Assembly (NCBI GenBank): GCA_017499595.2
Contig: CM038998.1
Coordinates: forward strand, 1-64,000
Length of the DNA stretch: 64,000 bases
Source of the DNA: Psilocybe cubensis
Taxonomy: Eukaryota
Direction: 5' to 3'
Part shown: piece by piece, positions 1-28,958 of the stretch
Numbering within the stretch: the stretch's first letter is position 1
How the letters are laid out: each line of letters opens with the position of its first letter
Program-made: the position numbers and the translations under genes
Notes under the pieces: generated by a model
The model's input: the letters and a program-made list of their open reading frames with translations, nothing else
Database searches by the model: none
Told to the model about the DNA's origin: nothing

Positions 1-185
1 ACCCTAAACCCTAAACCCTAAACCCTAAACCCTAAACCCTAAACCCTAAACCCTAAACCCTAAACCCTAAACCCTAAACCCTAAACCCTAAACCCTAAAC
101 CCTAAACCCTAAACCCTAAACCCTAACCCCCCTAAACCCTAAACCCTAAACCCTAAACCCTAAACCCTAAACCCTAAACCCTAAA
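1..185. repeat. Terminal telomeric tract (CCCTAAA)n / (TTTAGGG)n, left chromosome end
   Basis: Near-perfect heptamer array from base 1 with one variant unit near 121-130; C-rich strand on +. Confidence 0.97.
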
Positions 186-3040: not shown

Positions 3041-3772
3041 TCTTTCTATTTCAAACTCACAGTTTAAACTAGTCGCTCGCACCTCGCTTCGCTCGGTGCT
3101 CGCTCCCCCCCTAACCCTAAACCTAAACCTAAACCCTAAACCCTAAACCCTAAGCCCTAACCTAACCCCAACCCTAAGCTAACTAAGTCTAACCTTAGTA
3201 GGAAGTAAGGTAGGCGTGTGAACTTCCGAAAGGCATGTGATTGTGAAGGGCCGGATCTAATTTAGTACATGGGAAAAGTTACTTAGTACCTCGGGAAAAG
3301 TTCCTTAGTACCGTGGAAACATTTTTGATGGACCGGATCATGAACTGTCCAATTAAGATTCACAACAATCAATCAATTGATTGTTAGGTAAGGACCCAGG
3401 TAAGCTATTTATACTCTTGACATGAGAATATTCCCATGTCACGGTTACTCGGAGCCACGTAACCAGAGTATTTTATATCCATGTGATTCACATCACAGTC
3501 AATAACCCACGATGTCAAAGAACAAAAGTGTTGGATCCACTTTTGACAGGTTACCATGTGCCACATCGACCCGTGACACTCTGTTCATCAGAGATCTGTC
3601 TAACTTGACAATAAACATTGACAGATTTGTGATAGTCGGTAAGATACATGACAGCTGCGCAGCATCACTTCACGCGCTGTCATCGGATGTTCCAGAACAT
3701 TCCTTCTAAGAATAGCCACTGAAGAGTCTATAAAGACGAAAGGGCTGGCTGCTGATAACAATCAACAGCCCT

Positions 3773-4701
3773 CAAGTACTCGTCCTCTCCCAAACTCCTG
3801 CCGCTTGTGCCTTCCCAACTCATCCGGGAGCCCTTTCGTCACTGATCTTGCCCTTGACTCGGGGACGTTTCATCGACATGTTGGCTGCCTCACGGCAAGC
3901 GGGGCCCTTTTTCTTTCACTCGCTCACGCCTTCTATGTTGGGTTACGGAGGTCATACAAACTCGTTTTAGTCTAGCTGCGGGGTTATCCAGCTATGATGA
4001 CTTTGTAATTCGAGGGCGCGCAGTTCTTCAATGGGTATGGACATCAGGTGAGAGTACACTGGGGGTTGTCAGGACCAGCTCTGCTGGATACGCTCCTGGC
4101 AAGTCGGTTGCAGCCGGCGACACTACCGAATTGCTGGGACGTCCTAAAGCTTGTGGGTACCGCCGACCGCTGGAAACAGCCTAGGCACCGGTGGCGACCG
4201 GGTATGGTAACAATCCCCAAGATTCAGCGAAAGCTGGAATGGATAATCAGCAGCGAATCCGTAACGGTCACGCCGACGGAAGCGTTCAACGACTAGGTGG
4301 TAGTGGGGTCTTCGGATCTTAAGATATAGTCTTGGGAGTGGGGAAACCCACATCTGGTATCTAAACCGCGCCTCGCTGCTTACGAGGACGGCCCGAAGTC
4401 CAGAACCGCTTAAAACGCGGGTGACCCGGCCTCCCCTTAGTAAAGGGAGTTAACACAAGGATGGACAAATAGTTCGTCGCCGGAAATGAACCTGTGGCTG
4501 TAATGGCTGATGTGGCGCCCCTTGGTAAAGGGCTTAAAGGGTATTAGCCTGCCATGTCCAATGGCATGAGAGTGTCCCTTGGTAAAGGACTTAATAGGCA
4601 ATAGCCTGCTCTTTTGTCATGAGCGGTATGTAGTGATCGTTTGCCTGTACGGTAGCGCCCATTGCTTGCACTGGTCCACGCCCGTAAAAAATCACGAGCC
4701 G
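3773..4701 (+). ncRNA. Group I intron (IC1-like), 929 nt, interrupting the hammerhead
   Basis: P3 CACUACC(4121-27)/GGUAGUG(4299-4305); P AAUUGCUGGG(4129); Q AAUCAGCAG(4245); R GUUCAACGACUA(4284-95); S AAGAUAUAGUC(4321-31); P7 GACUA/UAGUC; P8 UUCG hairpin; P9 GUGGG-GAAA-CCCAC; P5b GCUG-GAAA-CAGC. The 5' exon ends in U3772 and the intron ends in G4701. Precisely absent from other pLTRs. Confidence 0.93.
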
Positions 4702-4813
4702 CTGGCCTTCTTTCCATTTAACTCACAGTTTAAACAAGTCGCTCGCACCTCGCTTCGCTCGGTGCTCGCTCCCCCCCTAAACCCAACGACTTTGCTATTA
4801 CCCAACAGCTACT

Positions 4814-7800
4814 ATGTCTTCCACTTACTCTGCTGCCTTCTCTCGTGCCATGTCCCCCACCCTGGACGCACTCACCCAGGCTGTCGTCAACAACACAGTT
4901 TTTGGCGTCAACGACGAAGCTGGCCGCCACAACGCCCTCATCGACGAGTTGGCCACTGTCGTCATCAAGAAAATAGCTGAGTGCCGCTCCATTGACCAGA
5001 TTGTAGACTGCGTCTTTTTTGACTATCGTGCTGCCCTTAGGGAGTTTCTCCTCAACCTCGCATCGTGGTGCGATAAGAGGGAAACAGTCAAGGCTAGCCT
5101 CGAGCGCCTTGAACTTGCCGTTAGCGCAGGCAACACCCCCAATCGCCTTCGGGTGAAGGCTCCCGAGTTCCAACTTACGAAGGAATTCGCGGATGCCGGG
5201 TCAGCGGAAGCTCTTCGAGTTTCCTCTACGTTCTCCACCGCTCGTGATGTCTTCCAAAAGGCAATCAACGACGGCGCCATTCAGGCGAAAAAGGACGAAC
5301 TGGCCTTTTGGGATGATAAATGCGCACTCAATAACTGTTATGAAGCTGCTGCCCTCATCGTTAAGACAACTTACGATGATCGCAAATCCAGCTATAAGCT
5401 CCCCGTTTTCTCTACAGACAACAAGGGAGTTCGTCGAATAACAGATTGGGTAGTGTCACCGCAGAAGAAGGCTGAATGCAGCGCATTGCAAACCATTTTG
5501 CCAGCCATCTTCTCTCATATCAAACAGATTGTCAACTTGCGCCACCGCGCTTTGGCAATCAAGATTGAGAAAAAGCGGTCGACTGCGGCAACAGCCGATG
5601 TCGAGATGGCCGATGCGACCAAACCAGGTCCATCGATTCAATCCCTTATTGATAAGGGCTTGAATGCACGTCTCAAGAAGCTCAACCTTGGATCTGTGGG
5701 CAAGAAGGCAAGTTCTCGTAACCCTTCACCCATAACTCTGGATACTAATTACTATTCTAATTACCCAGACTTTGTCTGGCCAGAATTCGTCCAAGGCTCC
5801 TCAACCTCAGGCCAAGAAAGCTGGCCCTTCGAAATTCAAACCCTCGTCGACGCCTTCGCAGAAGAAGCCCCAAACCAAGGCTTCCAACAAGGTCGACAAC
5901 AAGAAGAAAGGGAAGGGGAGAGCTCCCGTCAAGAACGATCCAAAGGGAAAGGGAAAGGCAAGAGCCTAGACGCGCGGTCTAATGTAGTACCTTTTACGTC
6001 GGTAAGACCCGCCTTCCCCAACTCTATTCCTGACGATATACTCACCATGACTAAAACAGACGCAGTTTCTTTTGTACACTTACATACGCCGATCTCATTC
6101 TTGTTGGCTGGCCAGTATCGTAGTAGTGTACACTGTAGTCCTGGTGTGGTGGTCCCTGTAGATATAGCAAATGATTTGTCACTCGGACTCAATTATATGT
6201 TTTTTACTCTACCTTCTCAAAGTCTGATCATGCAAACATGGAATGATTTTCAACGAAGAATAAGATGGCGTATCTATTTTTTGTTTAAGGAAGGCATGAA
6301 CAAACCTTTTGATCCAGATTACGGAGTAAGCTCAAAAAAGAAAGAGAAACCTCCAGTATTACCGCAATACATGGAACTTGGCCTTTCGATGGGACGTCGG
6401 TACGTGCAACGCACGATCGCAAGTATCCCGGAAGAAGCCCTTACGGAGATGCGAAAGCACGCGTTCTCTCCTAAAAGGGACAAGATCCGTAAGTTTCTTA
6501 TCGATAACAACTATGTTATTACGATGACAGATAAGAATCTTGGCCTCGCGGTGTCTGAACGCGACTGGATATTAAGGAATGAGCTCAATCTTCTTGAAGA
6601 TGAACGTAACTATGAAGAGTTAGAATTCGAAGTTGCGCAAGAAGTAATGAAGAGCAAAATGATCCAGATGCAAACTCTTGCACGTACCGTCGAAGATGAA
6701 CATCTGTTTCTATTTGAACTTGGGTTGTCTCGATTCTTTCTATCGAATGTACCGGAAGACGGATCATCGTTCAAGTACCCTCAATTTCATGGTATACCTA
6801 AAATCCACAAAAAACCTACTGGACTTAGGCCCATAATTCCGTGTCACTCTGTAGTATTTAATCCTGCAGCCAAGTTTGTATCAAAAGAGCTTAAGCCGAT
6901 TATTAAATCGACTCCTTCAATCATTCACGGAACGAAGGATCTCTTTACGAGATTAAGCCAATTGCGTATAGACCCCAAACGACAATGGTATTTTGTCACC
7001 GGGGATGTAGTTGCTTTCTATCCCAATATTCCGTTGGACTTGTGCATCGAAATCGTTTGTAATATGTACGAGGAATGGTTACTCAACGCTTCGGAAGAAA
7101 ACACTGCATTAGCCCATATTAATCCAAATTCGTTAGAGAATAACTTGGTTAAATTGGGCATCTTTAAACGTGCTATCGAGATTGGCAATACGCAATTGAT
7201 AACACAACATGGGTCTAGATATTTTAGACAAAAAAATGGCCTCGCAATGGGCGTCGCGGATTCTCCGGACCTTGCTAACCTCTTTGGAGCCCATTTTGAA
7301 ATAAAGTCAAAAATCTTAGACCACCCAAACGTGGCCTTCTATGGAAGGTACATCGACGATTGTTTCGCAATTGTTTACGCCGAGTCCGAAGCACTTGCAC
7401 TTAATCTTATTAAAGAAACAATAAAGTTCGATGGTTGTGTTATCGAATGGGCTGTTTCCTCGTCGGGATGTCAATTTCTCGATGCTTTCATATTCAAGGA
7501 GTCTGGAAAACTTCATTGGAAGCCATTTGTCAAGACAGGAAACAACCGAGAACGAGTTCCATGGGTATCACATCATCCTTTGGACGTCAAACGTGGCGTC
7601 TACATTGGAGAGTTATCCAGGTTAGCCGTGCTATGTAGTACCAAGGAAATCTACATCGGAGCAATTAGAGACCTTAACGCTCTCTATTTGATGCGCGGTT
7701 ATCCCGAAAACCTAGTCATGTCTTGGTGTAAGAAGAATATACAAGAACGTTGGGAAAAGCGATTCGCTTTACGAGTCGCAGAGCACGACGAATCCATTCT

Positions 7801-8344
7801 TGTACTTAAAACCAGATTTGATCAGGTATGGAATTGGTTTTCAGCTGCTGAACTTGGAAAAACTGTTACCGAGTACTGGTCGGCATGGTATGAACATGCC
7901 GAGAAAGGTTTGTATAGTGCAGACTCGTCCAGACCCCTTATCAAACCAGATCCAAATTACGTTCACGACCTCGATGATGTTCGCCCGGAGCTGTTCACAC
8001 AGATCCTCGTGGACGGAGAAACTGAGTTCGTACCGGATTTGAGGAAGATAGGACTACTCGGAAGTCGTTGGATAGTATCGCGAAAACGCAATACTAATCT
8101 TTTCGACCTTGCAAATGTGTGGAAGAAAACAGTCTTTCGTAAACTGGATGAAGACATCGCTGAAAAAGGTGGTGTTGTTCCCGAAACTCAAAACGTTAAT
8201 GAAACTTATCATTCTGCTTTAGTTGAAGCTGCTGAACAGATAAGTATCGAAAGTGATAACGAGATAATACTTCATAGACGTTCAATCTCACAAGAGAGGG
8301 AACATCCAGAATTCGGCAGAATATCCAAATCTTACAACCGATAA
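4814..8344 (+). CDS. PLE ORF1-reverse transcriptase polyprotein, 1176 aa, no GIY-YIG endonuclease visible
   Basis: Uninterrupted ORF; PLE-type RT motifs DKNLG, GIPKIHK, RPII, GDVVAFYPNI, QKNGLAMG..SP, YIDD, FLD. Confidence 0.93.
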   Translation: MSSTYSAAFSRAMSPTLDALTQAVVNNTVFGVNDEAGRHNALIDELATVVIKKIAECRSIDQIVDCVFFDYRAALREFLLNLASWCDKRETVKASLERLELAVSAGNTPNRLRVKAPEFQLTKEFADAGSAEALRVSSTFSTARDVFQKAINDGAIQAKKDELAFWDDKCALNNCYEAAALIVKTTYDDRKSSYKLPVFSTDNKGVRRITDWVVSPQKKAECSALQTILPAIFSHIKQIVNLRHRALAIKIEKKRSTAATADVEMADATKPGPSIQSLIDKGLNARLKKLNLGSVGKKASSRNPSPITLDTNYYSNYPDFVWPEFVQGSSTSGQESWPFEIQTLVDAFAEEAPNQGFQQGRQQEEREGESSRQERSKGKGKGKSLDARSNVVPFTSVRPAFPNSIPDDILTMTKTDAVSFVHLHTPISFLLAGQYRSSVHCSPGVVVPVDIANDLSLGLNYMFFTLPSQSLIMQTWNDFQRRIRWRIYFLFKEGMNKPFDPDYGVSSKKKEKPPVLPQYMELGLSMGRRYVQRTIASIPEEALTEMRKHAFSPKRDKIRKFLIDNNYVITMTDKNLGLAVSERDWILRNELNLLEDERNYEELEFEVAQEVMKSKMIQMQTLARTVEDEHLFLFELGLSRFFLSNVPEDGSSFKYPQFHGIPKIHKKPTGLRPIIPCHSVVFNPAAKFVSKELKPIIKSTPSIIHGTKDLFTRLSQLRIDPKRQWYFVTGDVVAFYPNIPLDLCIEIVCNMYEEWLLNASEENTALAHINPNSLENNLVKLGIFKRAIEIGNTQLITQHGSRYFRQKNGLAMGVADSPDLANLFGAHFEIKSKILDHPNVAFYGRYIDDCFAIVYAESEALALNLIKETIKFDGCVIEWAVSSSGCQFLDAFIFKESGKLHWKPFVKTGNNRERVPWVSHHPLDVKRGVYIGELSRLAVLCSTKEIYIGAIRDLNALYLMRGYPENLVMSWCKKNIQERWEKRFALRVAEHDESILVLKTRFDQVWNWFSAAELGKTVTEYWSAWYEHAEKGLYSADSSRPLIKPDPNYVHDLDDVRPELFTQILVDGETEFVPDLRKIGLLGSRWIVSRKRNTNLFDLANVWKKTVFRKLDEDIAEKGGVVPETQNVNETYHSALVEAAEQISIESDNEIILHRRSISQEREHPEFGRISKSYNR
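5708..5768 (+). other. Putative 61-nt GC-AG spliceosomal intron in the PLE ORF (also 11760-11820, 17837-17897, 24689-24749, 29853-29913)
   Basis: AAG|GCAAGT donor, CTAAT branch-like sites, CCCAG acceptor, AT-rich. Removal joins codon 298 to a Lys-rich frame that stops at 5969. Confidence 0.7.
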
Positions 8345-9052
8345 AAAGAATACTAGCGCGTAAGGCGTAAAGCATTAGAAAAAAACCCTAACCGTAAGTA
8401 TTCCTTGCTACAAAGTAACAAACATCTACTTACAAGCAACACATTGGATTAAATAGCTAAACCTAAACCTAAACCCTAAACCCTAAACCCTAAGCCCTAA
8501 CCTAACCCCAACCCTAAGCTAACTAAGTCTAACCTTAGTAGGAAGTAAGGTAGGCGTGTGAACTTCCGAAAGGCATGTGATTGTGAAGGGCCGGATCTAA
8601 TTTAGTACATGGGAAAAGTTACTTAGTACCTCGGGAAAAGTTCCTTAGTACCGTGGAAACATTTTTGATGGACCGGATCATGAACTGTCCAATTAAGATT
8701 CACAACAATCAATCAATTGATTGTTAGGTAAGGACCCAGGTAAGCTATTTATACTCTTGACATGAGAATATTCCCATGTCACGGTTACTCGGAGCCACGT
8801 AACCAGAGTATTTTATATCCATGTGATTCACATCACAGTCAATAACCCACGATGTCAAAGAACAAAAGTGTTGGATCCACTTTTGACAGGTTACCATGTG
8901 CCACATCGACCCGTGACACTCTGTTCATCAGAGATCTGTCTAACTTGACAATAAACATTGACAGATTTGTGATAGTCGGTAAGATACATGACAGCTGCGC
9001 AGCATCACTTCACGCGCTGTCATCGGATGTTCCAGAACATTCCTTCTAAGAA

Positions 9053-9119
9053 TAGCCACTGAAGAGTCTATAAAGACGAAAGGGCTGGCTGCTGATAACA
9101 ATCAACAGCCCTCTGGCCT
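9053..9119 (+). ncRNA. Hammerhead ribozyme, intact
   Basis: Same core as 2974-3040 with an alternative stem III extension (UGAU-AACA-AUCA). Confidence 0.88.
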
Positions 9120-9824: not shown

Positions 9825-10753
9825 CAAGTACTCGTCCTCTCCCAAACTCCTGCCGCTTGTGCCTTCCCAACTCATCCGGGAGCCCTTTCGTCACTGATCT
9901 TGCCCTTGACTCGGGGACGTTTCATCGACATGTTGGCTGCCTCACGGCAAGCGGGGCCCTTTTTCTTTCACTCGCTCACGCCTTCTATGTTGGGTTACGG
10001 AGGTCATACAAACTCGTTTTAGTCTAGCTGCGGGGATATCCAGCTATGATGACTTTGTAATTCGAGGGCGCGCAGTTCTTCAATGGGTATGGACATCAGG
10101 TGAGAGTACACTGGGGGTTGTCAGGACCAGCTCTGCTGGATACGCTCCTGGCAAGTCGGTTGCAGCCGGCGACACTACCGAATTGCTGGGACGTCCTAAA
10201 GCTTGTGGGTACCGCCGACCGCTGGAAACAGCCTAGGCACCGGTGGCGACCGGGTATGGTAACAATCCCCAAGATTCAGCGAACGCTGGAATGGATAATC
10301 AGCAGCGAATCCGTAACGGTCACGCCGACGGAAGCGTTCAACGACTAGGTGGTAGTGGGGTCTTCGGATCTTAAGATATAGTCTTGGGAGTGGGGAAACC
10401 CACATCTGGTATCTAAACCGCGCCTCGCTGCTTACGAGGACGGCCCGAAGTCCAGAACCGCTTAAAACGCGGGTGACCCGGCCTCCCCTTAGTAAAGGGA
10501 GTTAACACAAGGATGGACAAATAGTTCGTCGCCGGAAATGAACCTGTGGCTGTAATGGCTGATGTGGCGCCCCTTGGTAAAGGGCTTAAAGGGTATTAGC
10601 CTGCCATGTCCAATGGCATGAGAGTGTCCCTTGGTAAAGGACTTAATAGGCAATAGCCTGCTCTTTTGTCATGAGCGGTATGTAGTGATCGTTTGCCTGT
10701 ACGGTAGCGCCCATTGCTTGCACTGGTCCACGCCCGTAAAAAATCACGAGCCG
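9825..10753 (+). ncRNA. Group I intron copy 2
   Basis: Near-identical to 3773-4701 with the same U|...G boundaries. Confidence 0.93.
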
Positions 10754-10865: not shown

Positions 10866-13800
10866 ATGTCTTCCACTTACTCTGCTGCCTTCTCTCGTGC
10901 CATGTCCCCCACCCTGGACGCACTCACCCAGGCTGTCGTCAACAACACAGTTTTTGGCGTCAACGACGAAGCTGGCCGCCACAACGCCCTCATCGACGAG
11001 TTGGCCACTGTCGTCATCAAGAAAATAGCTGAGTGCCGCTCCATTGACCAGATTGTAGACTGCGTCTTTTTTGACTATCGTGCTGCCCTTAGGGAGTTTC
11101 TCCTCAACCTCGCATCGTGGTGCGATAAGAGGGAAACAGTCAAGGCTAGCCTCGAGCGCCTTGAACTTGCCGTTAGCGCAGGCAACACCCCCAATCGCCT
11201 TCGGGTGAAGGCTCCCGAGTTCCAACTTACGAAGGAATTCGCGGATGCCGGGTCAGCGGAAGCTCTTCGAGTTTCCTCTACGTTCTCCACCGCTCGTGAT
11301 GTCTTCCAAAAGGCAATCAACGACGGCGCCATTCAGGCGAAAAAGGACGAACTGGCCTTTTGGGATGATAAATGCGCACTCAATAACTGTTATGAAGCTG
11401 CTGCCCTCATCGTTAAGACAACTTACGATGATCGCAAATCCAGCTATAAGCTCCCCGTTTTCTCTACAGACAACAAGGGAGTTCGTCGAATAACAGATTG
11501 GGTAGTGTCACCGCAGAAGAAGGCTGAATGCAGCGCATTGCAAACCATTTTGCCAGCCATCTTCTCTCATATCAAACAGATTGTCAACTTGCGCCACCGC
11601 GCTTTGGCAATCAAGATTGAGAAAAAGCGGTCGACTGCGGCAACAGCCGATGTCGAGATGGCCGATGCGACCAAACCAGGTCCATCGATTCAATCCCTTA
11701 TTGATAAGGGCTTGAATGCACGTCTCAAGAAGCTCAACCTTGGATCTGTGGGCAAGAAGGCAAGTTCTCGTAACCCTTCACCCATAATTCTGGATACTAA
11801 TTACTATTCTAATTACCCAGACTTTGTCTGGCCAGAATTCGTCCAAGGCTCCTCAACCTCAGGCCAAGAAAGCTGGCCCTTCGAAATTCAAACCCTCGTC
11901 GACGCCTTCGCAGAAGAAGCCCCAAACCAAGGCTTCCAACAAGGTCGACAACAAGAAGAAAGGGAAGGGGAGAGCTCCCGTCAAGAACGATCCAAAGGGA
12001 AAGGGAAAGGCAAGAGCCTAGACGCGCGGTCTAATGTAGTACCTTTTACGTCGGTAAGACCCGCCTTCCCCAACTCTATTCCTGACGATATACTCACCAT
12101 GACTAAAACAGACGCAGTTTCTTTTGTACACTTACATACGCCGATCTCATTCTTGTTGGCTGGCCAGTATCGTAGTAGTGTACACTGTAGTCCTGGTGTG
12201 GTGGTCCCTGTAGATATAGCAAATGATTTGTCACTCGGACTCAATTATATGTTTTTTACTCTACCTTCTCAAAGTCTGATCATGCAAGCATGGAATGATT
12301 TTCAACGAAGAATAAGATGGCGTATCTATTTTTTGTTTAAGGAAGGCATGAACAAACCTTTTGATCCAGATTACGGAGTAAGCTCAAAAAAGAAAGAGAA
12401 ACCTCCAGTATTACCGCAATACATGGAACTTGGCCTTTCGATGGGACGTCGGTACGTGCAACGCACGATCGCAAGTATCCCGGAAGAAGCCCTTACGGAG
12501 ATGCGAAAGCACGCGTTCTCTCCTAAAAGGGACAAGATCCGTAAGTTTCTTATCGATAACAACTATGTTATTACGATGACAGATAAGAATCTTGGCCTCG
12601 CGGTGTCTGAACGCGACTGGATATTAAGGAATGAGCTCAATCTTCTTGAAGATGAACGTAACTATGAAGAGTTAGAATTCGAAGTTGCGCAAGAAGTAAT
12701 GAAGAGCAAAATGATCCAGATGCAAACTCTTGCACGTACCGTCGAAGATGAACATCTGTTTCTATTTGAACTTGGGTTGTCTCGATTCTTTCTATCGAAT
12801 GTACCGGAAGACGGATCATCGTTCAAGTATCCTCAATTTCATGGTATACCTAAAATCCACAAAAAACCTACTGGATTTAGGCCCATAATTCCGTGTCACT
12901 CTGTAGTATTTAATCCTGCAGCCAAGTTTGTATCAAAAGAGCTTAAGCCGATTATTAAATCGACTCCTTCAATCATTCACGGAACGAAGGATCTCTTTAC
13001 GAGATTAAGCCAATTGCGTATAGACCCCAAACGACAATGGTATTTTGTCACCGGGGATGTAGTTGCTTTCTATCCCAATATTCCGTTGGACTTGTGCATC
13101 GAAATCGTTTGTAATATGTACGAGGAATGGTTACTCAACGCTTCGGAAGAAAACACTGCATTAGCCCATATTAATCCAAATTCGTTAGAGAATAACTTGG
13201 TTAAATTGGGCATCTTTAAACGTGCTATCGAGATTGGCAATACGCAATTGATAACACAACATGGGTCTAGATATTTTAGACAAAAAAATGGCCTCGCAAT
13301 GGGCGTCGCGGATTCTCCGGACCTTGCTAACCTCTTTGGAGCCCATTTTGAAATAAAGTCAAAAATCTTAGACCACCCAAACGTGGCCTTCTATGGAAGG
13401 TACATCGACGATTGTTTCGCAATTGTTTACGCCGAGTCCGAAGCACTTGCACTTAATCTTATTAAAGAAACAATAAAGTTCGATGGTTGTGTTATCGAAT
13501 GGGCTGTTTCCTCGTCGGGATGTCAATTTCTCGATGCTTTCATATTCAAGGAGTCTGGAAAACTTCATTGGAAGCCATTTGTCAAGACAGGAAACAACCG
13601 AGAACGAGTTCCATGGGTATCACATCATCCTTTGGACGTCAAACGTGGCGTCTACATTGGAGAGTTATCCAGGTTAGCCGTGCTATGTAGTACCAAGGAA
13701 ATCTACATCGGAGCAATTAGAGACCTTAACGCTCTCTATTTGATGCGCGGTTATCCCGAAAACCTAGTCATGTCTTGGTGTAAGAAGAATATACAAGAAC

Positions 13801-14396
13801 GTTGGGAAAAGCGATTCGCTTTACGAGTCGCAGAGCACGACGAATCCATTCTTGTACTTAAAACCAGATTTGATCAGGTATGGAATTGGTTTTCAGCTGC
13901 TGAACTTGGAAAAACTGTTACCGAGTACTGGTCGGCATGGTATGAACATGCCGAGAAAGGTTTGTATAGTGCAGACTCGTCCAGACCCCTTATCAAACCA
14001 GATCCAAATTACGTTCACGACCTCGATGATGTTCGCCCGGAGCTGTTCACACAGATCCTCGTGGACGGAGAAACTGAGTTCGTACCGGATTTGAGGAAGA
14101 TAGGACTACTCGGAAGTCGTTGGATAGTATCGCGAAAACGCAATACTAATCTTTTCGACCTTGCAAATGTGTGGAAGAAAACAGTCTTTCGTAAACTGGA
14201 TGAAGACATCGCTGAAAAAGGTGGTGTTGTTCCCGAAACTCAAAACGTTAATGAAACTTATCATTCTGCTTTAGTTGAAGCTGCTGAACAGATAAGTATC
14301 GAAAGTGATAACGAGATAATACTTCATAGACGTTCAATCTCACAAGAGAGGGAACATCCAGAATTCGGCAGAATATCCAAATCTTACAACCGATGA
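10866..14396 (+). CDS. PLE ORF1-RT polyprotein, 1176 aa
   Basis: Intact ORF with the YIDD RT core. Confidence 0.93.
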   Translation: MSSTYSAAFSRAMSPTLDALTQAVVNNTVFGVNDEAGRHNALIDELATVVIKKIAECRSIDQIVDCVFFDYRAALREFLLNLASWCDKRETVKASLERLELAVSAGNTPNRLRVKAPEFQLTKEFADAGSAEALRVSSTFSTARDVFQKAINDGAIQAKKDELAFWDDKCALNNCYEAAALIVKTTYDDRKSSYKLPVFSTDNKGVRRITDWVVSPQKKAECSALQTILPAIFSHIKQIVNLRHRALAIKIEKKRSTAATADVEMADATKPGPSIQSLIDKGLNARLKKLNLGSVGKKASSRNPSPIILDTNYYSNYPDFVWPEFVQGSSTSGQESWPFEIQTLVDAFAEEAPNQGFQQGRQQEEREGESSRQERSKGKGKGKSLDARSNVVPFTSVRPAFPNSIPDDILTMTKTDAVSFVHLHTPISFLLAGQYRSSVHCSPGVVVPVDIANDLSLGLNYMFFTLPSQSLIMQAWNDFQRRIRWRIYFLFKEGMNKPFDPDYGVSSKKKEKPPVLPQYMELGLSMGRRYVQRTIASIPEEALTEMRKHAFSPKRDKIRKFLIDNNYVITMTDKNLGLAVSERDWILRNELNLLEDERNYEELEFEVAQEVMKSKMIQMQTLARTVEDEHLFLFELGLSRFFLSNVPEDGSSFKYPQFHGIPKIHKKPTGFRPIIPCHSVVFNPAAKFVSKELKPIIKSTPSIIHGTKDLFTRLSQLRIDPKRQWYFVTGDVVAFYPNIPLDLCIEIVCNMYEEWLLNASEENTALAHINPNSLENNLVKLGIFKRAIEIGNTQLITQHGSRYFRQKNGLAMGVADSPDLANLFGAHFEIKSKILDHPNVAFYGRYIDDCFAIVYAESEALALNLIKETIKFDGCVIEWAVSSSGCQFLDAFIFKESGKLHWKPFVKTGNNRERVPWVSHHPLDVKRGVYIGELSRLAVLCSTKEIYIGAIRDLNALYLMRGYPENLVMSWCKKNIQERWEKRFALRVAEHDESILVLKTRFDQVWNWFSAAELGKTVTEYWSAWYEHAEKGLYSADSSRPLIKPDPNYVHDLDDVRPELFTQILVDGETEFVPDLRKIGLLGSRWIVSRKRNTNLFDLANVWKKTVFRKLDEDIAEKGGVVPETQNVNETYHSALVEAAEQISIESDNEIILHRRSISQEREHPEFGRISKSYNR

Positions 14397-15901: not shown

Positions 15902-16830
15902 CAAGTACTCGTCCTCTCCCAAACTCCTGCCGCTTGTGCCTTCCCAACTCATCCGGGAGCCCTTTCGTCACTGATCTTGCCCTTGACTCGGGGACGTTTC
16001 ATCGACATGTTGGCTGCCTCACGGCAAGCGGGGCCCTTTTTCTTTCACTCGCTCACGCCTTCTATGTTGGGTTACGGAGGTCATACAAACTCGTTTTAGT
16101 CTAGCTGCGGGGTTATCCAGCTATGATGACTTTGTAATTCGAGGGCGCGCAGTTCTTCAATGGGTATGGACATCAGGTGAGAGTACACTGGGGGTTGTCA
16201 GGACCAGCTCTGCTGGATACGCTCCTGGCAAGTCGGTTGCAGCCGGCGACACTACCGAATTGCTGGGACGTCCTAAAGCTTGTGGGTACCGCCGACCGCT
16301 GGAAACAGCCTAGGCACCGGTGGCGACCGGGTATGGTAACAATCCCCAAGATTCAGCGAAAGCTGGAATGGATAATCAGCAGCGAATCCGTAACGGTCAC
16401 GCCGACGGAAGCGTTCAACGACTAGGTGGTAGTGGGGTCTTCGGATCTTAAGATATAGTCTTGGGAGTGGGGAAACCCACATCTGGTATCTAAACCGCGC
16501 CTCGCTGCTTACGAGGACGGCCCGAAGTCCAGAACCGCTTAAAACGCGGGTGACCCGGCCTCCCCTTAGTAAAGGGAGTTAACACAAGGATGGACAAATA
16601 GTTCGTCGCCGGAAATGAACCTGTGGCTGTAATGGCTGATGTGGCGCCCCTTGGTAAAGGGCTTAAAGGGTATTAGCCTGCCATGTCCAATGGCATGAGA
16701 GTGTCCCTTGGTAAAGGACTTAATAGGCAATAGCCTGCTCTTTTGTCATGAGCGGTATGTAGTGATCGTTTGCCTGTACGGTAGCGCCCATTGCTTGCAC
16801 TGGTCCACGCCCGTAAAAAATCACGAGCCG
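15902..16830 (+). ncRNA. Group I intron copy 3
   Basis: Near-identical to 3773-4701. Confidence 0.93.
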
Positions 16831-16942: not shown

Positions 16943-19900
16943 ATGTCTTCCACTTACTCTGCTGCCTTCTCTCGTGCCATGTCCCCCACCCTGGACGCAC
17001 TCACCCAGGCTGTCGTCAACAACACAGTTTTTGGCGTCAACGACGAAGCTGGCCGCCACAACGCCCTCATCGACGAGTTGGCCACTGTCGTCATCAAGAA
17101 AATAGCTGAGTGCCGCTCCATTGACCAGATTGTAGACTGCGTCTTTTTTGACTATCGTGCTACCCTTAGGGAGTTTCTCCTCAACCTCGCATCGTGGTGC
17201 GATAAGAGGGAAACAGTCAAGGCTAGCCTCGAGCGCCTTGAACTTGCCGTTAGCGCAGGCAACACCCCCAATCGCCTTCGGGTAAAGGCTCCCGAGTTCC
17301 AACTTACGAAGGAATTCGCGGATGCCGGGTCAGCGGAAGCTCTTCGAGTTTCCTCTACGTTCTCCACCGCTCGTGATGTCTTCCAAAAGGCAATCAACGA
17401 CGGCGCCATTCAGGCGAAAAAGGACGAACTGGCCTTTTGGGATGATAAATGCGCACTCAATAACTGTTATGAAGCTGCTGCCCTCATCGTTAAGACAACT
17501 TACGATGATCGCAAATCCAGCTATAAGCTCCCCGTTTTCTCTACAGACAACAAGGGAGTTCGTCGAATAACAGATTGGGTAGTGTCACCGCAGAAGAAGG
17601 CTGAATGCAGCGCATTGCAAACCATTTTGCCAGCCATCTTCTCTCATATCAAACAGATTGTCAACTTGCGCCACCGCGCTTTGGCAATCAAGATTGAGAA
17701 AAAGCGGTCGACTGCGGCAACAGCCGATGTCGAGATGGCCGATGCGACCAAACCAGGTCCATCGATTCAATCCCTTATTGATAAGGGCTTGAATGCACGT
17801 CTCAAGAAGCTCAACCTTGGATCTGTGGGCAAGAAGGCAAGTTCTCGTAACCCTTCACCCATAATTCTGGATACTAATTACTATTCTAATTACCCAGACT
17901 TTGTCTGGCCAGAATTCGTCCAAGGCTCCTCAACCTCAGGCCAAGAAAGCTGGCCCTTCGAAATTCAAACCCTCGTCGACGCCTTCGCAGAAGAAGCCCC
18001 AAACCAAGGCTTCCAACAAGGTCGACAACAAGAAGAAAGGGAAGGGGAGAGCTCCCGTCAAGAACGATCCAAAGGGAAAGGGAAAGGCAAGAGCCTAGAC
18101 GCGCGGTCTAATGTAGTACCTTTTACGTCGGTAAGACCCGCCTTCCCCAACTCTATTCCTGACGATATACTCACCATGACTAAAACAGACGCAGTTTCTT
18201 TTGTACACTTACATACGCCGATCTCATTCTTGTTGGCTGGCCAGTATCGTAGTAGTGTACACTGTAGTCCTGGTGTGGTGGTCCCTGTAGATATAGCAAA
18301 TGATTTGTCACTCGGACTCAATTATATGTTTTTTACTCTGCCTTCTCAAAGTCTGATCATGCAAGCATGGAATGATTTTCAACGAAGAATAAGATGGCGT
18401 ATCTATTTTTTGTTTAAGGAAGGCATGAACAAACCTTTTGATCCAGATTACGGAGTAAGCTCAAAAAAGAAAGAGAAACCTCCAGTATTACCGCAATACA
18501 TGGAACTTGGCCTTTCGATGGGACGTCGGTACGTGCAACGCACGATCGCAAGTATCCCGGAAGAAGCCCTTACGGAGATGCGAAAGCACGCGTTCTCTCC
18601 TAAAAGGGACAAGATCCGTAAGTTTCTTATCGATAACAACTATGTTATTACGATGACAGATAAGAATCTTGGCCTCGCGGTGTCTGAACGCGACTGGATA
18701 TTAAGGAATGAGCTCAATCTTCTTGAAGATGAACGTAACTATGAAGAGTTAGAATTCGAAGTTGCGCAAGAAGTAATGAAGAGCAAAATGATCCAGATGC
18801 AAACTCTTGCACGTACCGTCGAAGATGAACATCTGTTTCTATTTGAACTTGGGTTGTCTCGATTCTTTCTATCGAATGTACCGGAAGACGGATCATCGTT
18901 CAAGTATCCTCAATTTCATGGTATACCTAAAATCCACAAAAAACCTACTGGATTTAGGCCCATAATTCCGTGTCACTCTGTAGTATTTAATCCTGCAGCC
19001 AAGTTTGTATCAAAAGAGCTTAAGCCGATTATTAAATCGACTCCTTCAATCATTCACGGAACGAAGGATCTCTTTACGAGATTAAGCCAATTGCGTATAG
19101 ACCCCAAACGACAATGGTATTTTGTCACCGGGGATGTAGTTGCTTTCTATCCCAATATTCCGTTGGACTTGTGCATCGAAATCGTTTGTAATATGTACGA
19201 GGAATGGTTACTCAACGCTTCGGAAGAAAACACTGCATTAGCCCATATTAATCCAAATTCGTTAGAGAATAACTTGGTTAAATTGGGCATCTTTAAACGT
19301 GCTATCGAGATTGGCAATACGCAATTGATAACACAACATGGGTCTAGATATTTTAGACAAAAAAATGGCCTCGCAATGGGCGTCGCGGATTCTCCGGACC
19401 TTGCTAACCTCTTTGGAGCCCATTTTGAAATAAAGTCAAAAATCTTAGACCACCCAAACGTGGCCTTCTATGGAAGGTACATCGACGATTGTTTCGCAAT
19501 TGTTTACGCCGAGTCCGAAGCACTTGCACTTAATCTTATTAAAGAAACAATAAAGTTCGATGGTTGTGTTATCGAATGGGCTGTTTCCTCGTCGGGATGT
19601 CAATTTCTCGATGCTTTCATATTCAAGGAGTCTGGAAAACTTCATTGGAAGCCATTTGTCAAGACAGGAAACAACCGAGAACGAGTTCCATGGGTATCAC
19701 ATCATCCTTTGGACGTCAAACGTGGCGTCTACATTGGAGAGTTATCCAGGTTAGCCGTGCTATGTAGTACCAAGGAAATCTACATCGGAGCAATTAGAGA
19801 CCTTAACGCTCTCTATTTGATGCGCGGTTATCCCGAAAACCTAGTCATGTCTTGGTGTAAGAAGAATATACAAGAACGTTGGGAAAAGCGATTCGCTTTA

Positions 19901-20473
19901 CGAGTCGCAGAGCACGACGAATCCATTCTTGTACTTAAAACCAGATTTGATCAGGTATGGAATTGGTTTTCAGCTGCTGAACTTGGAAAAACTGTTACCG
20001 AGTACTGGTCGGCATGGTATGAACATGCCGAGAAAGGTTTGTATAGTGCAGACTCGTCCAGACCCCTTATCAAACCAGATCCAAATTACGTTCACGACCT
20101 CGATGATGTTCGCCCGGAGCTGTTCACACAGATCCTCGTGGACGGAGAAACTGAGTTCGTACCGGATTTGAGGAAGATAGGACTACTCGGAAGTCGTTGG
20201 ATAGTATCGCGAAAACGCAATACTAATCTTTTCGACCTTGCAAATGTGTGGAAGAAAACAGTCTTTCGTAAACTGGATGAAGACATCGCTGAAAAAGGTG
20301 GTGTTGTTCCCGAAACTCAAAACGTTAATGAAACTTATCATTCTGCTTTAGTTGAAGCTGCTGAACAGATAAGTATCGAAAGTGATAACGAGATAATACT
20401 TCATAGACGTTCAATCTCACAAGAGAGGGAACATCCAGAATTCGGCAGAATATCCAAATCTTACAACCGATGA
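16943..20473 (+). CDS. PLE ORF1-RT polyprotein, 1176 aa
   Basis: Intact ORF with the YIDD RT core. Confidence 0.93.
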   Translation: MSSTYSAAFSRAMSPTLDALTQAVVNNTVFGVNDEAGRHNALIDELATVVIKKIAECRSIDQIVDCVFFDYRATLREFLLNLASWCDKRETVKASLERLELAVSAGNTPNRLRVKAPEFQLTKEFADAGSAEALRVSSTFSTARDVFQKAINDGAIQAKKDELAFWDDKCALNNCYEAAALIVKTTYDDRKSSYKLPVFSTDNKGVRRITDWVVSPQKKAECSALQTILPAIFSHIKQIVNLRHRALAIKIEKKRSTAATADVEMADATKPGPSIQSLIDKGLNARLKKLNLGSVGKKASSRNPSPIILDTNYYSNYPDFVWPEFVQGSSTSGQESWPFEIQTLVDAFAEEAPNQGFQQGRQQEEREGESSRQERSKGKGKGKSLDARSNVVPFTSVRPAFPNSIPDDILTMTKTDAVSFVHLHTPISFLLAGQYRSSVHCSPGVVVPVDIANDLSLGLNYMFFTLPSQSLIMQAWNDFQRRIRWRIYFLFKEGMNKPFDPDYGVSSKKKEKPPVLPQYMELGLSMGRRYVQRTIASIPEEALTEMRKHAFSPKRDKIRKFLIDNNYVITMTDKNLGLAVSERDWILRNELNLLEDERNYEELEFEVAQEVMKSKMIQMQTLARTVEDEHLFLFELGLSRFFLSNVPEDGSSFKYPQFHGIPKIHKKPTGFRPIIPCHSVVFNPAAKFVSKELKPIIKSTPSIIHGTKDLFTRLSQLRIDPKRQWYFVTGDVVAFYPNIPLDLCIEIVCNMYEEWLLNASEENTALAHINPNSLENNLVKLGIFKRAIEIGNTQLITQHGSRYFRQKNGLAMGVADSPDLANLFGAHFEIKSKILDHPNVAFYGRYIDDCFAIVYAESEALALNLIKETIKFDGCVIEWAVSSSGCQFLDAFIFKESGKLHWKPFVKTGNNRERVPWVSHHPLDVKRGVYIGELSRLAVLCSTKEIYIGAIRDLNALYLMRGYPENLVMSWCKKNIQERWEKRFALRVAEHDESILVLKTRFDQVWNWFSAAELGKTVTEYWSAWYEHAEKGLYSADSSRPLIKPDPNYVHDLDDVRPELFTQILVDGETEFVPDLRKIGLLGSRWIVSRKRNTNLFDLANVWKKTVFRKLDEDIAEKGGVVPETQNVNETYHSALVEAAEQISIESDNEIILHRRSISQEREHPEFGRISKSYNR

Positions 20474-21407: not shown

Positions 21408-22081
21408 GCTAACTAAGTCTAACCTTAGTAGGAAGTAAGGTAGGCGTGTGAACTTCCGAACGGCATGTGATTGTGAAGGGCCGGATCTAATTTAGTACAT
21501 GGGAAAAGTTACTTAGTACTTCGGGAAAAGTTCCTTAGTACCGTGGAAACATTTTTGATGGACCGGATCATGAACTGTCCAATTAAGATTCACAACAATC
21601 AATCATTCTATTGTTTGATTGTTAGGTAAGGACCCAGGTAAGTTATTTATACTCTAGACATGTGAATATTCCCATGTCGCGGTTACTCGGAGCCACGTAA
21701 CCAGAGTAATCTATATCCATGTGATTCACATCACAGTCAATAACCCACGATGTCAAAGAACAAAAGTGTTGGATCCACTTTTGACAGGTTACCATGTGCC
21801 ACATCGACCCGTGACACTCTGTTCATCAGAGACCTGTCTAACTTGACAATAAACATTGACAGATTTGTGATAGTCGGTAAGATACATGACAGCTGCGCAG
21901 CATCACTTCACGCGCTGTCATCGGATGTCTAGAACATTCCTTCTAAGAATAGCCACTGAAGAGTCTATAAAGACGAAAGGGCTGGTTGTTGGGATCCCCC
22001 AACAGCCCTCTGGCTACTTTCCATTTAACTCCCAGTTTAAACTAGTCGCTCGCACCTCGCTTCGCTCGGTGCTCGCTCCCA
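21408..22081 (+). mobile_element. Solo, 5'-truncated pLTR of the PLE
   Basis: pLTR sequence with no ORF, flanked by telomeric repeats. Confidence 0.88.
21950..22016 (+). ncRNA. Hammerhead ribozyme, intact (6-bp stem I UAGCCA/UGGCUA)
   Basis: Same core; the variant TGGCTA extends stem I. Confidence 0.9.
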
Positions 22082-22754: not shown

Positions 22755-23683
22755 CAAGTACTCGTCCTCTCCCAAACTCCTGCCGCTTGTGCCTTCCCAA
22801 CTCATCCGGGAGCCCTTTCGTCACTGATCTTGCCCTTGACTCGGGGACGTTTCATCGACATGTTGGCTGCCTCACGGCAAGCGGGGCCCTTTTTCTTTCA
22901 CTCGCTCACGCCTTCTATGTTGGGTTACGGAGGTCATACAAACTCGTTTTAGTCTAGCTGCGGGGATATCCAGCTATGATGACTTTGTAATTCGAGGGCG
23001 CGCAGTTCTTCAATGGGTATGGACATCAGGTGAGAGTACACTGGGGGTTGTCAGGACCAGCTCTGCTGGATACGCTCCTGGCAAGTCGGTTGCAGCCGGC
23101 GACACTACCGAATTGCTGGGACGTCCTAAAGCTTGTGGGTACCGCCGACCGCTGGAAACAGCCTAGGCACCGGTGGCGACCGGGTATGGTAACAATCCCC
23201 AAGATTCAGCGAAAGCTGGAATGGATAATCAGCAGCGAATCCGTAACGGTCACGCCGACGGAAGCGTTCAACGACTAGGTGGTAGTGGGGTCTTCGGATC
23301 TTAAGATATAGTCTTGGGAGTGGGGAAACCCACATCTGGTATCTAAACCGCGCCTCGCTGCTTACGAGGACGGCCCGAAGTCCAGAACCGCTTAAAACGC
23401 GGGTGACCCGGCCTCCCCTTAGTAAAGGGAGTTAACACAAGGATGGACAAATAGTTCGTCGCCGGAAATGAACCTGTGGCTGTAATGGCTGATGTGGCGC
23501 CCCTTGGTAAAGGGCTTAAAGGGTATTAGCCTGCCATGTCCAATGGCATGAGAGTGTCCCTTGGTAAAGGACTTAATAGGCAATAGCCTGCTCTTTTGTC
23601 ATGAGCGGTATGTAGTGATCGTTTGCCTGTACGGTAGCGCCCATTGCTTGCACTGGTCCACGCCCGTAAAAAATCACGAGCCG
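22755..23683 (+). ncRNA. Group I intron copy 4
   Basis: Near-identical to 3773-4701 although the flanking pLTR and ORF1 are more diverged. Confidence 0.93.
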
Positions 23684-26700: not shown

Positions 26701-27325
26701 ATCTTGGTGTAAGAAGAATATACAAGAACGTTGGGAAAAGCGATTCGCTTTACGAGTCGCAGAGCACGACGAATCCATTCTTGTACTTAAAACCAGATTT
26801 GATCAGGTATGGAATTGGTTTTCAGCTGCTGAACTTGGAAAAACTGTTACCGAGTACTGGTCGGCATGGTATGAACATGCCGAGAAAGGTTTGTATAGTG
26901 CAGACTCGTCCAGACCCCTTATCAAACCAGATCCAAATTACGTTCACGACCTCGATGATGTTCGCCCGGAGCTGTTCACACAGATCCTCGTGGACGGAGA
27001 AACTGAGTTCGTACCGGATTTGAGGAAGATAGGACTACTCGGAAGTCGTTGGATAGTATCGCGAAAACGCAATACTAATCTTTTCGACCTTGCAAATGTG
27101 TGGAAGAAAACAGTCTTTCGTAAACTGGATGAAGACATCGCTGAAAAAGGTGGTGTTGTTCCCGAAACTCAAAACGTTAATGAAACTTATCATTCTGCTT
27201 TAGTTGAAGCTGCTGAGCAGATAAGTATCGAAAGTGATAACGAGATAATACTTCATAGACGTTCAATCTCACAAGAGAGGGAACATCCAGAATTTGGCAG
27301 AATATCCAAATCTTACAACCGATGA
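23795..27325 (+). CDS. PLE ORF1-RT polyprotein, 1176 aa
   Basis: Intact ORF with the YIDD RT core. Confidence 0.93.
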   Translation: MSSQYSAAFSRAMSPTLDALTQAVVNNTVFGVNDEAGRHNALIDELATVVIKKIAECRSVDQVIDCVFFDYRAALREFLLNLASWCDKRETVKASLERLESAVSAGNTPNRLKVKAPEFQLTKEFADAGSAEALRVSTTFSTARDAFQKAINDGAIQAKKDELTFWDDKCALNSCYEAAALIVKATYDDRKSSYKLPVFSTDNKGVRRIAEWVVSPQKKAECSALQTILPAIFSHIKQIVNMRHRALAIKIEKKRTTAATADVEMADATKPGPSIQSLIDKGLNARLKKLNLGSVGKKASFRNPSPIILDTNYYSNYPDFVWPEFVQGSSTSGQESWPFETQVVVDAFATQASNQGFQQGRQQEEREGESSRQERSKGKGKGKSLDARSNVVPFTSVRPAFPNSIPDDILTMTKTDAVSFVHLHTPISFLLAGQYRSSVHCSPGVSVPVDVANDLSLGLNYMFFTLPSKSLIMQAWNDFQRRIRWRIYFLFKEGMNKPFDPDYGVSSKKKEKPPVLPQYMELGLSMGRRYVQRTIASIPEEALTEMRKHAFSPKRDKIRKFLIDNNYVITMTDKNLGLAVSERDWILRNELNLLEDERNYEELEFEVAQEVMKSKMIQMQTLARTVEDEHLFLFELGLSRFFLSNVPEDGSSFKYPQFHGIPKIHKKPTGFRPIIPCHSVVFNPAAKFVSKELKPIIKSTPSIIHGTKDLFTRLSQLRIDSKRQWYFVTGDVVAFYPNIPLDLCIEIVCSMYEEWLLNASEENTALAHINPNSLENNLVKLGIFKRAIEIGNTQLITQHGSRYFRQKNGLAMGVADSPDLANLFGAHFEIKSKILDHPNVAFYGRYIDDCFAIVYAESEALALNLIKETIKFDGCVIEWAVSSSGCQFLDAFIFKESGKLHWKPFVKTGNNRERVPWVSHHPLDVKRGVYIGELSRLAVLCSTKEIYIGAIRDLNALYLMRGYPENLVISWCKKNIQERWEKRFALRVAEHDESILVLKTRFDQVWNWFSAAELGKTVTEYWSAWYEHAEKGLYSADSSRPLIKPDPNYVHDLDDVRPELFTQILVDGETEFVPDLRKIGLLGSRWIVSRKRNTNLFDLANVWKKTVFRKLDEDIAEKGGVVPETQNVNETYHSALVEAAEQISIESDNEIILHRRSISQEREHPEFGRISKSYNR

Positions 27326-28107: not shown

Positions 28108-28786
28108 CTTTCCATTTAACTCCCAGTTTAAACTAGTCGCTCGCACCTCGCTTCGCTCGGTGCTCGCTCCCACCCTAAACCCTAAACCCTAAACCCTAAC
28201 CCTAAACCCTAAACCCTAAGCCCTAACCTAACCCCAACCCTAAGCTAACTAAGTCTAACCTTAGTAGGAAGTAAGGTAGGCGTGTGAACTTCCGAACGGC
28301 ATGTGATTGTGAAGGGCCGGATCTAATTTAGTACATGGGAAAAGTTACTTAGTACTTCGGGAAAAGTTCCTTAGTACCGTGGAAACATTTTTGATGGACC
28401 AGATCATGAACTGTCCAATTAAGATTCACAACAATCAATCAGTCTATTGTTTGATTGTTAGGTAAGGACCCAGGTAAGCTATTTATACTCTAGACATGTG
28501 AATATTCCCATGTCGCGGTTACTCGGAGCCACGTAACCAGAGTTTTCTATATCCATGTGATTCACATCACAGTCAATAACCCACGATGTCAAAGAACAAA
28601 AGTGTTGGATCCACTTTTGACAGGTTACCATATGCCACATTGACCCGTGACACTCTGTTCATCAGAGATCTGTCTAACTTGACAATAAACATTGACAGAT
28701 TTGTGATAGTCGGTAAGATACATGACAGCTGCGCAGCATCACTTCACGCGCTGTCATCGGATGTTCCAGAACATTCCTTCTAAGAA

Positions 28787-28853
28787 TAGCCACTGAAGAG
28801 TCTATAAAGACGAAAGGGCTGGCTGCTGATAACAATCAACAGCCCTCTGGCTT
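28787..28853 (+). ncRNA. Hammerhead ribozyme, intact, upstream of the ORF
   Basis: Same core and stems. Confidence 0.88.
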
Positions 28854-28958
28854 CTTTCCATTTTAACTCCCAGTTTAAACTAGTCGCTCGCACCTCGCTT
28901 CGCTCGGTGCTCGCTCCCCCCCTAAACCCAACGACTTTGCTATCACCCATCAGCCACT

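Follow-up and report, generated by a model that had tools for sequence, protein, structure and literature searches.

What becomes of a self-cleaving ribozyme when a splicing ribozyme sits exactly at its cleavage site? The question is raised by a 64,000-nt stretch of DNA from Psilocybe cubensis (contig CM038998.1 of GenBank assembly GCA_017499595.2, positions 1 to 64,000 of the forward strand; hereafter, the window), where a stack of telomere-attached Penelope-like elements (PLEs) carries hammerhead ribozymes in its pseudo-long terminal repeats (pLTRs), and four of these hammerheads are split by a 929-nt insert. Judged by sequence and predicted structure, the insert is a true group I intron, and the hammerhead would form only once this intron had been spliced out, an order that we regard as probably a tolerated by-product of the place where the intron landed. 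The features on which the argument draws are listed in the table below.

The 29-nt hammerhead core CTGAAGAGTCTATAAAGACGAAAGGGCTG, which comprises CUGAAGA, stem II, GAAA, and the beginning of stem III, is present in 13 copies on the + strand of the window; 100 shuffles gave no match. Nine of the 13 copies run on uninterrupted into ...CAACAGCCCT|CTGGC (as RNA, ...CAACAGCCCU-C-UGGC), and in these the type I core CUGAAGA-G..C-GAAA-..-U-C (G10.1-C11.1, A15.1-U16.1) and the three stems are complete. The remaining four (cores at 3719, 9771, 15848, and 22701) read ...CAACAGCCCT|CAAGTACTCG, with CAAGUACUCG directly 3' of U16.1. The four inserts (3773-4701, 9825-10753, 15902-16830, and 22755-23683) are each followed by CTGGC and differ from one another at no more than two positions, namely intron positions 212 (window 3984, T/A) and 460 (window 4232, A/C). 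Because insert and downstream exon both start with C, two boundary registers are possible, CA..CG or AA..GC; neither is GT-AG, which rules out a spliceosomal intron, and the CA..CG register alone gives a U before the insert and a G at its end, this terminal G (the G4701 equivalent) being found in that register in all four copies. An earlier reading of the letters alone (the sequence-only reading) had described nine complete hammerheads, four copies with 929 nt exactly between U16.1 and C17, and two non-GT-AG registers of which one obeys the group I rule, and the core search and insert comparison agree with it on each count.

The insert is no assembly artefact, since independent DNA reads and contigs contain it or its 3' junction. 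In an independent run (X22), some raw DNA reads lie over the insert and others show the exact 929-nt skip from 3772 to 4702 with ends CA..CG, while contigs of runs X8 and X9 hold the insert, with record 3 of X8 covering 4184-4742 across the 3' junction. Run X23, which we guess to be RNA, gave one 351-nt contig that matches 4702-4781 and then passes into unrelated sequence, and it is uninformative on splicing or cleavage.

Rfam places the insert among group I introns. The sole gathering-level Rfam matches in the window are four matches to RF00028 (group I intron), with each insert giving one (73.0, 73.0, 70.9, and 70.9 bits against a threshold of 50; E near 1e-16), and a permissive scan of 3650-4830 (E up to 5) added nothing credible and no rRNA. 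From its P2, P2.1, and extended P5, we take the build of the window intron to be IC1-like. There is no homing endonuclease gene in the insert, which holds no open reading frame (ORF) of at least 70 aa; the largest overlapping ORF has 69 aa and lies on the opposite strand.

The splice-site helix P1 ties the intron to the hammerhead. A guide, GGGGUUGU (4062-4069), pairs with the last eight exon nucleotides, ACAGCCCU (3765-3772), placing U3772.G4062 at the splice site, and it ranks best of all candidates between the insert start and P3; eight base pairs with U.G at the splice site were reached in 36 of 2000 mononucleotide shuffles. Unconstrained minimum free energy (MFE) folding of 3757-4072 returns this 8-bp P1 and extends it by C3773-G4061, A3774-U4060, and a 6-bp helix (3776-3781/4052-4057), and because the extended helix closes on both sides of the intervening 270 nt, we interpret that stretch as an insertion in the P1 loop (L1). 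An alternative guide, GGGGUU at 3980, offers only 6 bp and its next position (3984) is polymorphic, so 4062 is preferred. The exon octamer ACAGCCCU thus doubles as the 3' strand of hammerhead stem III and as the P1 partner, and the thermodynamic model favors the P1 fold by 7.5 kcal/mol over one in which hammerhead stem III is enforced. Both the group I assignment and the competition of the two folds for the exon end had been proposed from the sequence alone and are borne out by the Rfam scores and by folding.

Features of the window. Nested features follow the feature that contains them.
Feature	Position	Strand	Basis
Terminal telomere array, (ACCCTAA)x26, C-rich strand reading inward (chromosome end)	1..185	+	
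Hammerhead 5' part, ORF-proximal pLTR	3714..3772	+	sequence, core search
Hammerhead stem I 5' strand, AGCCA	3714-3718	+	
Hammerhead CUGAAGA	3719-3725	+	
Hammerhead stem II, GUCU/AGAC	3726-3737	+	
Hammerhead GAAA	3738-3741	+	
Hammerhead stem III, GGGCUG with CAGCCC	3742-3747 with 3766-3771	+	
Hammerhead U16.1	3772	+	
Group I intron, 929 nt, no ORF of at least 70 aa	3773..4701	+	Rfam, copy comparison
P1 5' strand: exon ACAGCCCU (3765-3772) plus intron 3773-3774 and 3776-3781 extending the helix	3765..3781	+	
L1 (P1 loop) insertion, ~270 nt, closed by GUACUC (3776-3781)/GAGUAC (4052-4057); T/A polymorphism at 3984	3782..4051	+	
P1 3' strand including internal guide GGGGUUGU (4062-4069), directly 5' of P2	4052..4069	+	
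P2, CAGGA/UCCUG, inner CCAGC/GCUGG	4070-4074/4094-4098	+	by eye and Rfam alignment
P2.1, GUCGG/CCGGC	4103-4107/4114-4118	+	by eye and Rfam alignment
Catalytic core	4121..4351	+	Rfam alignment, family covariation
P3, CACUACC/GGUAGUG	4121-4127/4299-4305	+	
P4, UGCUGG/UCAGCA	4132-4137/4247-4252	+	
P5 with ~90-nt extension, two GAAA loops	4142-4244	+	
P6	4253-4283	+	
P7, GACUA/UAGUC	4291-4295/4327-4331	+	
P8, UUCG loop	4306-4319	+	
P9, GUGGG-GAAA-CCCAC	4338-4351	+	
3' extension, 350 nt, three CCCUU(G/A)GUAAAGGG hairpin modules; omega G = 4701	4352..4701	+	
Hammerhead C17 (4702), stem I 3' strand UGGC (4703-4706), and 111-nt leader with motif CUCGCUUCGCUCG and telomere-like CCCCCCCUAAACCC	4702..4813	+	
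Reverse transcriptase ORF, 1176 aa, DKN and YIDD motifs	4814..8344; intact copies 10866-14396, 16943-20473, 23795-27325	+	
Reverse transcriptase ORF copy, 1177 aa	28959-32492	+	
Empty allele: uninterrupted hammerhead, flanks identical to those of the interrupted copy at 3714	9054..9117	+	
Remaining empty hammerhead cores	2980, 15111, 21188, 21956, 28047, 28793, 33206, 35366	+	

The host is a stack of Coprina-type endonuclease-less PLEs at a P. cubensis chromosome end, a class assignment made from the DKN motif and single ORF together with the chromosome-end arrangement. Behind the telomere array, units of about 6 kb stand head to tail with their 5' ends facing the terminus; units 1-3 are mutually 99.7-100% identical and the fourth unit is 96.6% identical. 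The leader ends in CCCCCCCUAAACCC and is followed either by the ORF or by a telomere tract (43, 68, 68, and 92 nt), and 5'-truncated element copies abut telomere tracts; these tract-separated and truncated copies therefore speak for repeated terminal additions, not for one block duplication. The 1176-aa ORF contains MTDKNLGLAV and YIDD, and D573, K574, and N575 are invariant in 14 relatives. Its reverse transcriptase (RT) region (residues 560-1000) is 99% identical to P. cubensis proteins, for which PF00078 is precomputed, and 28-74% identical to hundreds of other proteins. No Pfam family was found on the ORF by hmmscan even at E = 10, which makes the absence of GIY-YIG uninformative on its own, and a PDB profile search with the RT alignment gave nothing below E = 0.4. 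The head-to-tail, telomere-attached pattern matches endonuclease-less PLEs as described in the available parts of PMC4209133, PMC8557442, and PMC13159263. The telomere array, the tract-separated copies, and the RT comparison thus confirm that the element is a telomeric retroelement, as the sequence-only reading had called it.

Several smaller observations concern the same stack. The terminal repeat is of the 7-nt CCCTAAA type (26 copies, window 1-185), a type also present in a related metagenomic locus (L056, 101-175), and the internal telomere tracts contain both CCCTAA and CCCTAAA; the type described for most fungi is the 6-nt TTAGGG. A solo pLTR (21408-22080, hammerhead at 21956) has telomere tracts on both sides and looks like an independent terminal addition of an RNA of ~700 nt ending at the telomere-like motif of the leader. 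Each pLTR carries 2.3-2.7 copies of a 22-nt repeat (TTAGTAC.TGGGAAAAGTTAC) ~400 nt before the hammerhead (3262-3319; e.g., 8602-8659) and a TATTTATA-like box ~310 nt before it (8748-8760), with TATAAATA lying upstream of the intron in the related locus L077; the repeats and the box may be promoter elements.

Is the hammerhead, then, peculiar to this chromosome end, or does it belong to the element family? We examined 80 metagenomic loci encoding homologues of the RT with a finder that required the core, at least 3 bp in stem II, at least 5 bp in stem III, and at least 3 bp in stem I. The RT strand yielded 34 full type I hammerheads and the opposite strand none, against 2 matches in 20 shuffle replicates, and the hits include 15 complementary stem I versions and 9 stem II versions, a count that is biased in that the finder requires pairing. 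The ORF start and more than 150 nt upstream of it are contained in 39 of the 80 loci; 18 of these 39 have an upstream hammerhead, and in 17 of the 18 the cut site falls 82-138 nt before the inferred ATG. In the window, intronless ORF-proximal copies have 108-112 nt between cut site and RT start codon and the modelled spliced copy has 111 nt, close to the ~110 nt given in the sequence-only reading. By these sequence comparisons, the hammerhead is a feature of the whole RT family. Our assignment of it draws on the motif, on covariation, and on published fungal PLE variants, because Rfam models and MFE folding fail to support it. In addition, run X22 DNA reads at 3748-3772 commonly show a third version of stem III (..CGUUUGUACCCCCAAACAGCCCU) that is absent from the window, the inner helix of which (GUUUG/CAAAC) covaries with the window versions.

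Two conserved pieces of sequence accompany the family. The leader motif CUCGCUUCGCUCG is kept between cut site and start codon in the window (4749-4761) and in L046 (1551-1563), L056 (85-97 and 738-750), and L061 (747-759), with complementary arms on its two sides (a perfect 11-bp stem in L061) and across host RTs that share only 30-45% identity; on the uncapped RNA, it may serve as a signal for translation or for RT binding. The hairpin module CCCUU(G/A)GUAAAGGG, followed by ..AUUAGCC.., occurs three times in the 3' tail of the window intron (4425-4445, 4512-4550, and 4576-4610) and is 89-92% identical over 35-39 nt to the module of the L061 intron (150-190 and 609-650), whose host RT is ~32% identical.

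The intron also has relatives. Rfam was run on 20 of the related loci and the other 60 were scanned only by R1, a model of our own covering P7-P9. The same four loci (L046, L056, L061, and L077) were found by nhmmer, by Rfam at E-value thresholds, and by R1, and the introns always lie upstream of the RT ORF on the same strand (4 of 80 loci, or 4 of the 39 that show the 5' region). Across the five intron sequences, including that of the window, P7 does not vary and P8 and P9 show covariation; three compensatory states occur in P3, and L077 has compensatory change in P4. Pairing in P7-P9 extends to 95.2% of cells versus 77.7% in shuffles (0 of 500 reach the observed value) and 30-56% in slid controls, with six pairs changed on both sides. 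The first ~35 nt of the window intron and the 3' tail module are common to relatives, and the family has been kept in the 5' region across RT divergence to about 30% identity.

The exact site of the intron varies within the family. In L046, a 1071-nt insert lies within U16.1-U17-AACU of the hammerhead, where the group I rule allows two registers. We favor the register after U1.4, which MFE folding supports and in which the ligated product has a perfect stem I, and we set aside the register that would put the intron at the same site as in the window (U16.1|N17), 5 nt away; the favored one gives U443.G599, a guide directly before P2, and an L1-closing helix as in the window, and it leaves 5 bp of stem I in the unspliced RNA. 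In L056, a close relative of L046, the hammerhead is intact save for one stem III mismatch and the intron comes next to the conserved leader motif, on its 3' side, ~48 nt beyond the cut site. The L061 contig begins inside the intron, and in L077 no hammerhead is seen upstream. Splitting of the core is therefore not conserved, the L046 and L056 introns sitting at other sites near the hammerhead, and we conclude from the sequences of these loci that the intron family is associated with the 5' repeat or leader rather than with the hammerhead core.

How the intron moves is suggested by comparison of units 1 and 4, which differ at 28 of 595 positions in the upstream pLTR, 1 of 929 in the intron, 7 of 112 in the leader, and 130 of 3531 in the ORF. 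The flanks thus differ by 4.7-6.3%, with the nearest differences 11 nt before and 5 nt after the intron, and a stretch of identity that stops at either end of the intron suggests that the intron itself was transferred or lost. Filled and empty sites with identical flanks occur in both flank variants (3719 versus 9059; 22701 versus 21956 and 28047). Such exact empty alleles agree with the proposed splice junctions but are present as DNA too. No intronless DNA in the window combines the variant-A stem III loop with the junction, the leader version CTGGCCTTC..CACAG, and the ORF start. Per-strand depth in run X22 is 35-60 for the intron, 545-789 for pLTR bins (3178-3705), and about 155-383 for ORF bins (4762-8450), so the intron resides in a minority of copies. 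In the window, it is found in four of six ORF-proximal hammerheads and in none of the seven other pLTRs despite the same target sequence.

These observations suggest the following course of events. The intron would splice at 3772/3773 and 4701/4702, rebuilding ..CCCU|CUGG... Unspliced RNA cannot form the hammerhead, because C17 and the 3' strand of stem I lie 929 nt away and P1 occupies the 3' strand of stem III; ligated RNA would fold the hammerhead and undergo cleavage 3' of C4702, which is 111 nt upstream of the AUG. Provided that both ribozymes are active, splicing before cleavage follows logically from the anatomy. As an exact unit, the intron would spread by reverse splicing into element RNA via the short internal guide and subsequent copying by the element RT, and empty sites would be either never-invaded sites or copies of spliced RNA. 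Units 1-3 all carry the intron, from which we infer that intron-bearing RNA was copied.

A number of results weigh against this interpretation. On the side of the intron, only C4702-G4061 can be paired by eye as P10, i.e., at most 1 bp; the MFE of the whole intron is no better than that of shuffles (z = -0.84); and the L1 insert (270 nt) and the 3' tail (350 nt) are long by group I standards. The relatives' introns score 23.7-39.6 bits with the Rfam model, below the threshold of 50, so that no Rfam match at gathering score was obtained in the 20 related loci; the L046 P1 is not significant alone (496 of 2000 shuffles reach it), and the 5' splice site of L056 could not be fixed. On the side of the hammerhead, curated models stay below gathering score in the window (RAGATH-1-hammerhead 23 bits with 56.3 needed, Hammerhead_3 19.5 with 48.5 needed), and the canonical three-way junction was not recovered when four intronless hammerheads were folded by MFE. 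As for transfer, the absence of the intron from all seven pLTRs that are not ORF-proximal is unexplained by simple reverse splicing. Further, ~1 kb at the 3' end of the ORF (unit 1, 7178-8178; unit 4, 26160-27160) has ~2 differences, compared with 3.7-4.7% over the rest of the units; DNA-level mosaic exchange therefore occurs, and the elements are recombinant mosaics.

Granted the anatomy, what does the dependence of cleavage on splicing mean? The sequence-only reading had seen in it a nested two-ribozyme switch that could sort transcripts. On such a model, the intron would be kept because it shields the full-length RT template from cleavage, and spliced RNA would be cut and serve as mRNA or circle substrate. 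Such a function would agree with the distribution of the intron (four of six versus none of seven), with its presence in all three near-identical full-length copies nearest the chromosome end, which were copied with the intron in place, with the competition of P1 and stem III for one octamer, and with the long stay of the family in the 5' region. The copies are, however, related, and the two fractions do not count independent events; an intronless full-length element with a complete 5' pLTR stands at 28244-33362; the intron makes up a small fraction of pLTR or ORF copies by X22 depth; and the split is not conserved, with L046 keeping a 5-bp stem I and L056 an intact hammerhead. The nested anatomy thus stands, but the L046 and L056 sites weaken the case for an evolved transcript-sorting switch, which we hold to be unlikely. 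We think that in this lineage the splicing-cleavage dependence is rather probably a tolerated by-product of the intron landing site. The more inclusive proposal that an intron family has left ribosomal DNA (rDNA), lives in nuclear telomeric retroelements, and spreads by reverse splicing and the element RT, and that in the Psilocybe lineage it also forms with the hammerhead an obligatorily ordered two-ribozyme gate (unspliced RNA as template, spliced RNA as message or circle precursor), is tentative and, taken as one claim, doubtful.

The intron might instead be an inactive relic, once mobile and now unable to splice, that disables the hammerhead and whose four copies were multiplied passively through copying of unspliced RNA or through subtelomeric recombination. 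Three of the four copies sit in units that are 99.7-100% identical and provide no test of selection, and the MFE result for the whole intron, the weak P10, and the mosaic exchange in the ORF would all suit a relic. Yet the full core is intact and scores above the Rfam threshold, P1 retains its U.G, covariation in the family indicates long-term structural selection, and exact filled/empty pairs in two flank backgrounds, with an identity tract ending 11 and 5 nt from the boundaries, fit gain or loss at the RNA level; we therefore consider a relic quite improbable. It is also conceivable that the boundaries are wrong, i.e., that the insert is foreign DNA or RNA with a group I core (e.g., from template switching from rDNA or an organelle) and that the true intron is shorter than 929 nt, given that the Rfam match covers only 3976-4353 (297 nt in two copies) and leaves 200-290 nt 5' of it and 350 nt 3' of it unassigned. 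Here, the permissive scan found neither rRNA nor an organelle fragment or other family in 3650-4830; the insert is preceded by U and ends in G, as the rule demands; its guide sits immediately before P2 and base-pairs with the adjoining exon; relatives have the first ~35 nt and the tail module in common with it; its GC content is near 52-55%; and the core agrees well with the J8/7-P7 segment of the Rfam consensus. We consider such an origin very improbable.

Against known systems, what is new is the host, a telomeric retroelement, and the nesting, with core and hammerhead being of known kinds. Group I introns of nuclear genomes have been described only in rRNA genes (2024 review, PMC10964413). 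A search of full-text literature, with subscription journals and supplements outside its scope, found no published case of such an intron in PLEs, in other retrotransposons, or at nuclear sites outside rDNA, in agreement with the statement of the sequence-only reading that no case had been described. Like nuclear rDNA introns, the window intron has a P3-P9 core, a P1 with U.G, a terminal G, a GNRA-capped P9, P5 extensions, and strongly conserved J6/7-P7 and J8/7-P7; unlike them, it resides in the 5' repeat of a telomeric retroelement and has a 270-nt L1 insert, a 350-nt tail, and no homing endonuclease ORF. According to the available part of PMC4209133, pLTRs of fungal and protist endonuclease-less PLEs carry type I hammerheads with a large helix III and short helices I and II, and a related fungal PLE hammerhead cleaves in vitro; in the same part, group I introns are named only as the source of GIY-YIG endonucleases. 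The hammerheads described here resemble those in being of type I and in the pLTR of a telomere-associated PLE (nine uninterrupted copies and 34 motifs in relatives), and differ from them, so far as that part of the article goes, in that four window copies are interrupted between U16.1 and C17 by a group I intron.

Other comparisons concern the order of the two reactions. Small ribozymes that set an RNA end just upstream of an ORF, as presumed here, are also represented by the HDV-like ribozymes (HDV, hepatitis delta virus) of R2-type elements and by retrozymes, none of which is reported, in the abstracts of that work, to be gated by an intron. In twin-ribozyme group I introns, a small ribozyme and a splicing ribozyme share one intron. 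As there, two ribozymes are nested in one transcript in the window and an order is expected from alternative folds, whereas the nesting is inverted, the splicing ribozyme lying inside the cleaving one, the host is a retroelement, and there is no endonuclease gene. Where group I introns interrupt functional rRNA sites or the anticodon loops of tRNAs, a functional RNA likewise arises only after precise self-splicing, but in the window the interrupted RNA is the self-cleaving ribozyme of a mobile element and its exon strand doubles as the P1 partner.

The spread of group I introns to new sites is usually attributed to reverse splicing and reverse transcription, with phylogenetic support, and to our knowledge no natural system offers an obvious RT step. 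Here, the host RNA is the template of its own RT, the intron appears to be transferred unit-exactly between diverged elements, and relatives' introns sit at three nearby sites; a matching guide is modelled for two sites (window and L046), and the reverse-splicing pathway is directly testable. The locus would also provide a natural case of a ribozyme assembled only after another one acts, which bears on PLE RNA processing and could be adopted as a ready blueprint for processing RNA in a fixed order.

In the unique part of the window, we further observed a 32-40-nt tandem repeat with the palindrome GGAGGCCGGCCTCC at 50892-50970 and 55412-55569, 4.5 kb apart. Finally, a 309-bp unit occurs twice in tandem at 42524-43138, the two copies being 81% alike.

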